Positions 50,101-53,100 of a stretch of 64,000 bases of DNA are shown here, one piece after another. The position numbers are program-made. This stretch comes from Escherichia coli (lineage in GTDB: Bacteria; Pseudomonadota; Gammaproteobacteria; Enterobacterales; Enterobacteriaceae): NCBI RefSeq assembly GCF_011045215.1, contig NZ_CP049201.1; one strand, 5' to 3'. Position 1 is the stretch's first letter. Every line of letters starts with the position of its first letter.

Positions 50101-53100
50101 GCTAATTGAGCATTGACATCCGCTATATAATTTATATGATTACATTTTTTCTTACACTCATCATAATTTTCGATAGGATAAATTAATGGCCTTCCTTTGA
50201 TATCTCTCTCAAGCCCAAACCCGTATTTTTTTATTAAAACCATTTCATCCGCAGTCGATTGAAAGGAATAGAAAAATATAATATTTACGATTGTCATTAT
50301 TATGATTTTTTTTATAGCTTGCAGCATTAATATATTTCTCGACTTATTAGTTAATGGAGAAGTGCTTTTTCTAATTCCGCTATTTTTTTCTTAACTGAAT
50401 TGCTTAATATTTCATCATTAATCGAGTCTATCTCACTTTCAATTAATCTTATTTCAAAATATCTTTCTATGTTATATGCATTCTCAAATATTTGATCTTT
50501 TTGTTTAGAGATCAGTTTAGTTGCAATACGGATATGTTCGTCATATGAAACTTCATCCTCTTTGCACGTTGAATATTTATCAGTAGTTGTATAATTCTGT
50601 GACCACATACCACCTTTTTTATTATCCCCATAATACCACTGAATATGAGACATTTCATGACATAAAGTAGCAACATGAGAATCCTTTCCCGTTACTGGAT
50701 TTTTTTGCCATCTCTATACTCAAATTTTGCGCCTATGTTAATTATATAGGGCATATCCTTACTTGGGCTGACGAATGCTGCAAATTCATTACAACCTGTA
50801 TAATTTATAAAACTGCTCATTGTTAAATCATTAGCTATAATCATTAATCTTCTCACACCATCCATCATAAGAAATCTAGCATTCATGCGCCTAACTGTAT
50901 TATGTCCATATTTTCTTATATTAACTTCCTTATTTCCTTTAACACCAAAGATCTTACTGAAATCATATTCCTCCTGTGCTCCCCATCTCAAAAGATCATC
51001 TGCTCTTTTTATCAAAACCAACTTTTGTGCCTTACGAACCTTATCAATCATTATTTTAAAATGATCAGTTATTTTTTGCTCTTTCACACATTCTTCTGGC
51101 TCTGGCTTTGGTTGTCCAGAAGTTTGATTATTATCGTCCATAGTGTCCTTCCATTGAGAGAAAATCATCATTCGCAAATAGCAACTAAAAAGCAGCATTA
51201 CTTGACCTTTCCCTGCATAACAATATTTATAAAATAATACGTTTTATGATCTCACCTTGGGCTCCCAACAAGATAATTTCAGTTTTAAAGACTTTCACGA
51301 AAAAATATAGAAATACCTCACCACCCTTCACTTACCAATTAATCTCACAGGAAATCCAACTTCCTTACCACAAATACAATCCCAAGTAACATTTCCCAAA
51401 ATTTTTGATACTTTAGGCTGCAATGGCATTATTGACATTATAAATTTATCAAGTTCTTCGCTATATTTAATTCCCTTTATATTTCTTATTATTGATATTC
51501 TAGCAGTAAAGATAGCCGTCTCTCCATCTACACTAAAAGTGTAATTACAATTTTTTGTAATCTCATCAAATTCAACCGATAACAAATCAATATTATGGTT
51601 TGTAAACACTATGCCCATTCCATACCTCCTTAAATTCCTGTTCAGTCATCAGATATCGACTCCCTTGATATGGATCATATATTATCACATTCCCAGCATC
51701 ATCAACACCCTTAACAAGTACCCAATGTCCTACTTTACTTCCAGAATCCCACATCATTGCTCCCCATGAACCAGTATTACTGAGGGCATATAAACTAGAT
51801 TCGCTCACTGCATTCCCTTCCCAGCCGACATCAAATTTATTAAGCTTGTTTGCCAGCGACGTCATAGATGTTAATTCTGTTCCAATTACATTTTGCGTGA
51901 CAAAAATATACCTATCCCTAAGCAACATTTCCCCACAGGCCGCTCCACAGCCTGTTAAAGTCAATTGCTTTATTACATTTGAATCTAAAACCTCATCAAA
52001 TACTGTCCAATTGCCACCAGCACCACCTTCTAAAACTACCGGCTCTACAAATACTTTCCCAGAGATATTTTCTTCTGGTATTTTTGCGGGTATCATAAAG
52101 CCCCATAAAAAGCTGGAAAAATGCTCCAGAGCAATCTGATCACCATTATTTGCATCCATTATCATTTTTTTAAGTGCATCCCATGCTTGCCCATTTATCA
52201 ATGAATCACTAATATTAAATAAAGCCTGTTCTTTTTCGTTTAAATTTATATTTGCCTGTTCACATAACCCATCTTCGCCTATCGGGCAAGCAACCGTTGC
52301 CGTTGCCGTATCTAACAGAGCATCGAATGTAACTAAGGCTAAATCCGCCACACCATGTAAAGTGGTGATTGCTCCATTCCCCATTTGAGTAAGTGTGTTC
52401 TCTCCAAACCATTCTCTAATTTGAGATTTATCTCCTTCAATACCATTCCTGAGAGATTCTCTGATATTCTTTATTGAAAAAAACTCCCCCCATGATTGGT
52501 CAGGATCTTTTATTTGGAATAAATCATTTTTAACCTCAGGTGAAATATCTCCGTCAAAAATATTACCAACAGAGAGGAGATCCTTCAGAAGCAGTAAATC
52601 GTGTATTACTTCAGCAGTCCTTTCATAATTAAAACTTCTATCAATGACAGAAATCATTGGTGATTTTATTTTGGTATATAATTTACCAAGGCAGTTATGG
52701 TTATTAATCCCAACAACTGAACCATGATAAGCAACAGGTTTCCCTTCTATTGTTACAGTCGGACTTCCCGTTAAAATAACACAGTCACCCGTTCCTTGAG
52801 ATGTACCGGATATGACACCTTTACCGGCATTACTTTGAGTTCCAGCAATCACTGAACCAACATTTAAAGCTCTGCATCCACGCGCCCATACCGTTGAACT
52901 GTACTGTCTTTCACTATCTAAAGTCTGGTAACTGTCAAAAGGAACCTTGTAACCTCCTACTTCACATACATCTGGTGAAGTACACACGACTCTAAATCTA
53001 GATTCACCATCCCCGATATGATAGTTACCCATAATATTTTTTCCCTATACATTCAGGAATAATACAACTCAGCACTCCTTCTTTCATTCCAAAAAAATCA

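Follow-up and report, generated by a model that had tools for sequence, protein, structure and literature searches.

The subject of the present analysis is a 64,000-nucleotide stretch of Escherichia coli DNA (RefSeq assembly GCF_011045215.1, contig NZ_CP049201.1), hereafter the window, and in particular one gene on its minus strand at 51593-53032. We are highly confident that this gene is an allele of cpe1, that its product, also published as TsaP, is an antibacterial effector of the E. coli type VI secretion system (T6SS), and that it works by the mechanism set out below, the import step of which is graded separately. The protein, its fold, its catalytic cysteine, its GyrB and ParE targets, the mechanism of immunity and the gene name are all already known. 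What is added here is that the allele belongs to an auxiliary island, intact in the window, where E. coli K-12 has rhsE, and that a mobile unit apparently extends from the 3' end of vgrG through the immunity gene cpi1. An earlier note had described the product as a candidate effector pairing a PAAR-like (DUF4150-type) N-terminus with a C39-like papain-fold peptidase at its C-terminus; its author recognised a real effector architecture from the raw sequence, and the identity with Cpe1 and its immunity protein Cpi1 confirms a T6SS toxin followed by an immunity gene, a finding that is not in itself new.

The region contains exactly one open reading frame (ORF), running from ATG to stop over 479 codons, and its plus-strand reading is broken by stops throughout. 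The assignment of this 479-amino-acid T6SS cysteine protease effector as cpe1 (the same gene as tsaP) follows from the ORF and from its near-identity to WP_000528852.1. At the N-terminus, a PAAR-like domain, the part expected to belong to the VgrG spike, occupies residues 15-115 (52688-52990, minus strand); in a Pfam profile search it matched PF13665 (Tox-PAAR-like, formerly DUF4150) with an E value of 8.2e-12 over model positions 2-107 of 108, and a weaker PAAR_motif match covered residues 81-105 (E 0.0024). At the other end, the C39 or papain-like cysteine peptidase toxin domain spans residues 338-479 (51596-52021, minus strand), and PF03412 (Peptidase_C39) was matched over residues 352-474 with an E value of 1.2e-5 and 25.6 bits (model positions 3-124 of 133). 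Because the two termini match PF13665 and PF03412, neither resemblance is due to chance, and the profile search of both ends that the earlier note had called for came out in favour of its domain assignments. The placement of the toxin domain at the C-terminus was likewise correct, while its length is about 142 amino acids rather than the roughly 130 first given; the strand (minus), the middle domain at about residues 189-333 and the GG/A site described below had not been mentioned.

The sequence motifs quoted earlier are all present. The first, TGCGAACGEMLL, begins at Cpe1 residue 360 and supplies cysteines C362 and C366, the second, GHWVLVKGVDDAGNVIIYDPYQG, begins at residue 435 and supplies H436 and D453, and EFKEVWNG lies close to the C-terminus. 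The distance between C362 and H436, put at about 75 residues in the earlier note, is 74. The order Cys, His, Asp is therefore kept in C362, H436 and D453, and the latter two, which carry no number in the main text of the published work, are read from the motifs as the likely catalytic partners of C362.

The strongest evidence for the identification comes from comparison with the published protein. When PDB sequences were searched, chain A of entry 9l5u agreed with Cpe1 at every position of residues 337-479 (100% identity, E 2.6e-94). This entry contains the crystallised toxin domain of Cpe1 from E. coli ATCC 11775 and was tied, through the bioRxiv version of the paper, to Song et al. (PLoS Biol 2025; PMC12136450). 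The papain-like fold of the toxin domain is thus established by the crystal structure of an identical sequence and not by prediction, a single-sequence AlphaFold2 model of full-length Cpe1 having been too poor for a fold search (mean predicted local distance difference test score 36, predicted template modelling score 0.26). The accession of the ATCC 11775 protein (WP_000528852.1 / EAS44_RS19410) was taken from S1 Table of the same paper, and its coding sequence was fetched and compared. Without any gap, 473 of the 479 residues are identical, and the six substitutions (window residue first: S11C, T18S, S133T, D276N, A294T and S306A) all fall in the PAAR-like and middle regions, outside the toxin domain. 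Every Cpe1 residue numbered in the paper matches the window, namely C362 and the hydrophobic exosite residues L387, M390, A408, M426, W428 and V434. In addition, no difference was found from the protein of E. coli PapM-32-1 (WP_088129690.1), and TsaP of the extraintestinal pathogenic E. coli strain RS218 (AJM72455.1) is listed as 100% identical to Cpe1 (PMC12136450, S1 Table). The latter was described in 2023 as the product of a 1437-bp gene, tsaP, in which a PAAR portion and a middle portion precede a toxic C39 portion (PMC10434152).

At the DNA level, the cpe1-cpi1 pair is 99.1% identical to that of ATCC 11775, UTI89, S88 and many further strains, and 100% identical to that of PapM-32-1; it is the only part of the island that is 100% identical to any complete genome. 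The pair is carried by 335 of the 5426 complete E. coli genomes in the collection, none of which contains the whole island at ≥99% identity. Some RefSeq records already label the two genes cpe1 and cpi1. An NCBIfam search returned no family for Cpe1, Cpi1, the DUF2169 protein encoded upstream or the ORFs downstream, so these names must stem from another type of rule.

The immunity gene cpi1 lies at 51328-51618 on the minus strand and encodes 96 amino acids. It begins within the end of cpe1, with which it shares 26 nucleotides, and a ribosome-binding site, AAGGAGG, precedes its start. The protein matches chain C of 9l5u (E 2.6e-61, 95 of 96 residues identical), retains the interface residues I47, M61, M64 and K72, and is identical to WP_069913508.1, which RefSeq names Cpi1. 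The sole difference from the crystallised ATCC 11775 protein is residue 76, which is asparagine in the window (51391-51393, minus strand) and glycine in the crystal, and which lies four residues from interface residue K72. The N76 form is presumably still protective, since the same variant accompanies an identical toxin domain in PapM-32-1. According to the published structure and binding assays, Cpi1 leaves the active site unblocked and binds the hydrophobic exosite next to it, competing with substrate; the affinity of Cpe1 is higher for Cpi1 (dissociation constant 8.58 nM) than for the ATPase domain of ParE (343 nM) (PMC12136450).

The activity of this toxin domain has been described in detail. 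With the catalytic cysteine replaced (C362A), toxicity and filamentation are both abolished, and an hns-deleted donor of ATCC 11775 outcompetes MG1655 less strongly (PMC12136450). GyrB and ParE emerged as substrates from crosslinking and from in vitro assays; they are cleaved at G101G102 and G97G98, respectively, within the LHAGGKF loop of the ATPase domain (PMC12136450). T6SS dependence was reported for TsaP through comparison with a clpV mutant in RS218 (PMC10434152). The Cys-to-Ala control, the co-expression with the downstream ORF and the superposition on C39 peptidases that had been suggested for this locus are consequently all in print (PMC12136450). For the same reason, the view that a C39-fold toxin would be an unusual effector activity was out of date once TsaP (2023; PMC10434152) and Cpe1 (2025; PMC12136450) had been published, and the target, held at the time to be unknown, had already been identified as GyrB and ParE (PMC12136450). 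On the strength of the identical toxin domain, GyrB/ParE cleavage and C362-dependent toxicity can probably be ascribed to the allele in the window as well.

From these data and from the gene order, the following course of action is proposed. The genes directly upstream of cpe1, on the same strand, encode a 660-amino-acid VgrG (TssI) spike protein (54178-56160, minus strand; TIGR03361, E 1.4e-180) and a 348-amino-acid DUF2169 accessory protein, a presumed adaptor or chaperone (53025-54071, minus strand; PF09937, E 1.7e-72), whose gene shares its last 8 nucleotides, stop included, with the start of cpe1. Judging by domain content and gene order, the PAAR-like N-terminus of Cpe1 would cap the VgrG spike encoded two genes upstream, and the DUF2169 protein would serve as the loading adaptor; binding of the PAAR-like domain to the VgrG tip is also assumed in the literature on Cpe1 (bioRxiv 10.64898/2026.05.07.723447). 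Firing of the T6SS would then take Cpe1 into a neighbouring Gram-negative cell, where the helical middle domain may carry the toxin over the inner membrane and the protease may free itself at G337/A338 in the reducing cytoplasm. The freed C39 papain-fold peptidase would cut within the LHAGGKF loop of GyrB and ParE, at its GG, ending supercoiling control and chromosome segregation and leading to filamentation and growth arrest; this step has been demonstrated, both in vivo and in vitro, with a toxin domain that matches that of the window at 100% identity (PMC12136450). Finally, Cpi1, made from the overlapping downstream gene, would shield the producer by occupying the exosite against substrate, in line with the crystal structure and the binding assays (PMC12136450).

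The import step is suggested by kinship with StbD-CT, a C39 toxin of contact-dependent inhibition (CDI) systems. The helical middle domain of Cpe1 (residues ~189-333, including Cys249 and Cys257; 52034-52468, minus strand) was assigned by homology to the cytoplasm-entry domain of this protein. With Cpe1 residues 121-336 as the query, phmmer aligned residues 189-333 with residues 27-171 of the StbD-CT chain 8ssk_A (E 2.1e-25), and the alignment over Cpe1 189-477 reached an E value of 4e-82. Throughout, the numbering of Cpe1 runs 179 residues ahead of that of StbD-CT: the catalytic C362 and the second cysteine, C366, have counterparts at this offset, the pair C249 and C257 corresponds to Cys70 and Cys77 of StbD, and the predicted self-cleavage site, G336-G337/A338 in the linker LEGG/AGGNW (52019-52027, minus strand), aligns with Gly157-Gly158/Ala159. 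According to a 2026 preprint, the N-terminal part of StbD-CT forms a helical domain that depends on YajC for entry into the cytoplasm and contains a disulfide between Cys70 and Cys77; in reducing conditions, the C39 domain releases itself by a cut after Gly157-Gly158, and killing is almost abolished when this self-cleavage is blocked. The authors of that preprint point out that the entry domain and the processing site are also present in Cpe1, and they suggest that YajC is hijacked by Cpe1 (bioRxiv 10.64898/2026.05.07.723447). We give roughly even chances that Cpe1 would cross the inner membrane through such a CDI-type, YajC-dependent entry domain and then undergo redox-gated self-cleavage at G337/A338. 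This proposal was already made from homology in the 2026 preprint and is not original here. If it is true, T6SS and CDI toxins have one import module in common, and the import route, which is the remaining mechanistic point for Cpe1, is directly testable.

The genes described above belong to an island situated between yncG and pptA (48979-57000). Upstream of vgrG, the island also encodes a canonical PAAR protein of 94 amino acids (56179-56463, minus strand), recognised by NF033420 (T6SS_PAAR_dom) with an E value of 1.4e-46, above the curated cut-off; PAAR, VgrG, DUF2169, Cpe1 and Cpi1 are all encoded by intact, full-length ORFs. The island terminates in a fragment of an ISAs1 transposase. At the same site, K-12 MG1655 carries yncH, the rhsE pseudogene, ydcD, yncI and the H-repeat transposase gene ydcC, and this slot is a polymorphic-toxin hotspot. 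A PAAR-vgrG pair adjoins yncG in 686 of the 5426 complete E. coli genomes.

Comparison with ATCC 11775 further points to an exchangeable cassette within the island. From cpi1 to about position 54330, the DNA of the window is 99-100% identical to that of ATCC 11775, whereas identity falls to 96.0% in 54328-54627 and to 87-96% over the rest of vgrG. Near 54500, inside the 3' part of vgrG, the G+C content climbs sharply, from about 35% to about 60%. This drop in identity and the compositional shift inside vgrG suggest that the cassette reaches from the vgrG 3' end through cpi1, with 54300-54700 as the probable recombination boundary and the C-terminus of VgrG travelling together with DUF2169, cpe1 and cpi1.

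Directly downstream of cpi1, at 50351-51198 on the minus strand, lies a gene for an M35-like zinc metallopeptidase with a HEMSH motif. Its product gave a weak Pfam match to Aspzincin_M35 (E 0.0046) and no match in the PDB or in NCBIfam. The gene is intact in PapM-32-1 and 33F4, where it encodes 263 amino acids (WP_069913544.1), and in the window it is split into ORFs of 168 and 100 amino acids by a length difference of 1 nucleotide in an A7/A8 run near 50680. It is followed by a 219-amino-acid ORF at 49668-50327 (minus strand; 28% G+C) with a signal-peptide-like N-terminus, for which no family match was obtained and whose version in relatives measures 247-263 amino acids. The M35-like gene and this signal-peptide-bearing neighbour may form a second effector-immunity pair of the island. 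Between 49400 and 51330, all indels that separate the window from its closest relatives, 33F4 and PapM-32-1, lie within runs of a single base, A or T. Homopolymer indels of this type are typical of sequencing or assembly errors, so the apparent frameshifts in this region need caution, and the split of the M35-like gene may be an assembly error rather than a real pseudogene.

Several observations weigh against the view that the locus encodes a working Cpe1 with the mechanism proposed above. The functional data come from other strains and alleles, the published toxin domain being identical to that of the window. YajC dependence and self-cleavage have been shown for StbD-CT only, and their extension to Cpe1 would rest on homology. 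For its single VgrG, the island offers two candidate spike caps, the 94-amino-acid PAAR protein and Cpe1 with its PAAR-like domain, and the two may alternate. In the closest relatives, moreover, the island shows several stages of decay at this site: PapM-32-1 has lost vgrG and DUF2169, cpe1 of 33F4 is reduced to a C39 remnant, and IS600 interrupts vgrG in 2018-05-2CC. Within the window itself, no T6SS core genes were found. Furthermore, over-expression of cleavage-resistant GyrB (deltaG102) and ParE (deltaG98) failed to protect cells (PMC12136450), so that cleavage of these two proteins may not account for all of the toxicity.

Part of this evidence could be taken to mean that the gene, although Cpe1 by sequence, is an inactive relic, lying in an auxiliary island that no T6SS fires and kept only or mainly for Cpi1 immunity. 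The position of the island, apart from T6SS core genes as far as the window extends, the visible decay of the same island in related genomes and its termination in the ISAs1 transposase fragment would agree with such a state, as would the fact that killing by ATCC 11775 was seen only after de-repression of the T6SS by hns deletion (PMC12136450). The state of the genes argues otherwise: all five ORFs are full-length, the junctions are translationally coupled through overlaps of 8 and 26 nucleotides, and no residue of the toxin domain has changed compared with the protein that was crystallised and is active. It also counts against a relic that auxiliary vgrG islands normally depend on a core T6SS cluster located elsewhere. 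A loss of function of this kind is therefore considered unlikely.

The failed rescue bears on a different question, namely whether Cpe1 owes its killing mainly to substrates besides GyrB and ParE, with topoisomerase cleavage as a side activity. In addition to the lack of protection by GyrB deltaG102 and ParE deltaG98, six further essential proteins were crosslinked to Cpe1; these six, however, were not cut in vitro, the full LHAGGKF motif occurs in no further E. coli protein, and several technical reasons for the failed rescue are offered by the authors (PMC12136450). An independent group, moreover, arrived at the same targets and phenotypes for StbD-CT and solved the C39-GyrB context (bioRxiv 10.64898/2026.05.07.723447). 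Killing chiefly through other substrates is thus judged improbable, and GyrB and ParE are retained as the principal targets of Cpe1.

Work on TsaP has raised the prospect that this protein has its main effect on eukaryotic host cells, or that it serves chiefly as a source of membrane-active peptides: deletion of tsaP lowered adhesion, invasion and intramacrophage survival, and peptides engineered from its WDALKKMIMDT segment were bactericidal (PMC10434152). Those peptides, however, are redesigned synthetic derivatives of a middle-domain helix and not a natural product (PMC10434152), the toxic part is the C39 domain, with a requirement for the catalytic cysteine (PMC12136450, PMC10434152), and the targets are bacterial topoisomerases (PMC12136450). 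A primary role of either sort appears very improbable beside an antibacterial one. As for a housekeeping, non-toxin protease that matures double-glycine leader peptides of a bacteriocin or microcin, as in ComA, LahT and the PCAT transporters, the Pfam family (bacteriocin-processing C39), the closest non-toxin structures (ComA and LahT) and the GG-motif specificity (PMC12136450) would fit it, but it is rejected with near certainty, because no ABC-transporter domain is fused to Cpe1 or encoded next to it according to the ORFs and Pfam matches, the domain shares one polypeptide with a PAAR-like module and is encoded in an island with genes for VgrG and DUF2169, and expression of the identical domain is toxic and neutralised by Cpi1 (PMC12136450).

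Placed among known systems, the Cpe1 of the window is closest to Cpe1 of ATCC 11775 and TsaP of RS218, with which it shares the length of 479 amino acids, the three-part architecture and an identical toxin domain (338-479). The neighbouring proteins of ATCC 11775 are also close to those of the window, with 95 of 96 residues identical in Cpi1, 345 of 348 in the DUF2169 protein (three amino acids differ) and 633 of 660 in VgrG. The genomic settings differ: in ATCC 11775, the module closes the main T6SS cluster (tssB..., Hcp, VgrG, DUF2169, Cpe1, Cpi1) next to yafV, whereas in the window it forms an auxiliary island, with a PAAR gene before it and the M35-like gene after it.

Outside the T6SS, the closest relatives are the C39 toxins of the StbD-CT and CdiA-CT type (PDB 8ssk, 8ssm and 12aj), in which a homologous entry domain precedes a C39 peptidase. 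Cpe1 and StbD-CT have in common the GG/A site, a cysteine four residues past the catalytic one, the cysteine pair of the entry domain and, as targets, the type II topoisomerases; their immunity proteins are related as well (Cpi1 against 8ssm_C, E 3.2e-9). They differ in delivery, as StbD-CT travels on a CdiA filament and is released at a VENN motif, while Cpe1 would use a T6SS spike, with its PAAR-like domain in place of the CdiA body. In addition, the peptidase residues that contact GyrB diverge between the two (bioRxiv 10.64898/2026.05.07.723447).

The C39 domains of bacteriocin ABC exporters (ComA, 3K8U; LahT, 6MPZ; the C39-like domain of HlyB, 3zua) stand further away, being N-terminal parts of transporters that mature exported peptides, whereas Cpe1 is a free-standing, delivered toxin that is paired with an immunity protein of its own and cuts essential enzymes in their folded state. 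Regarding gene organisation, a parallel is Agrobacterium Tde2 with Atu3641, reportedly described by Bondage et al. in 2016 as a DUF4150 effector loaded by a DUF2169 adaptor. That system follows the same order of vgrG, DUF2169 gene, DUF4150 effector and immunity gene, and presumably the same loading logic; the Tde2 toxin domain is a DNase, in contrast to the C39 protease and CDI-type entry domain of Cpe1.

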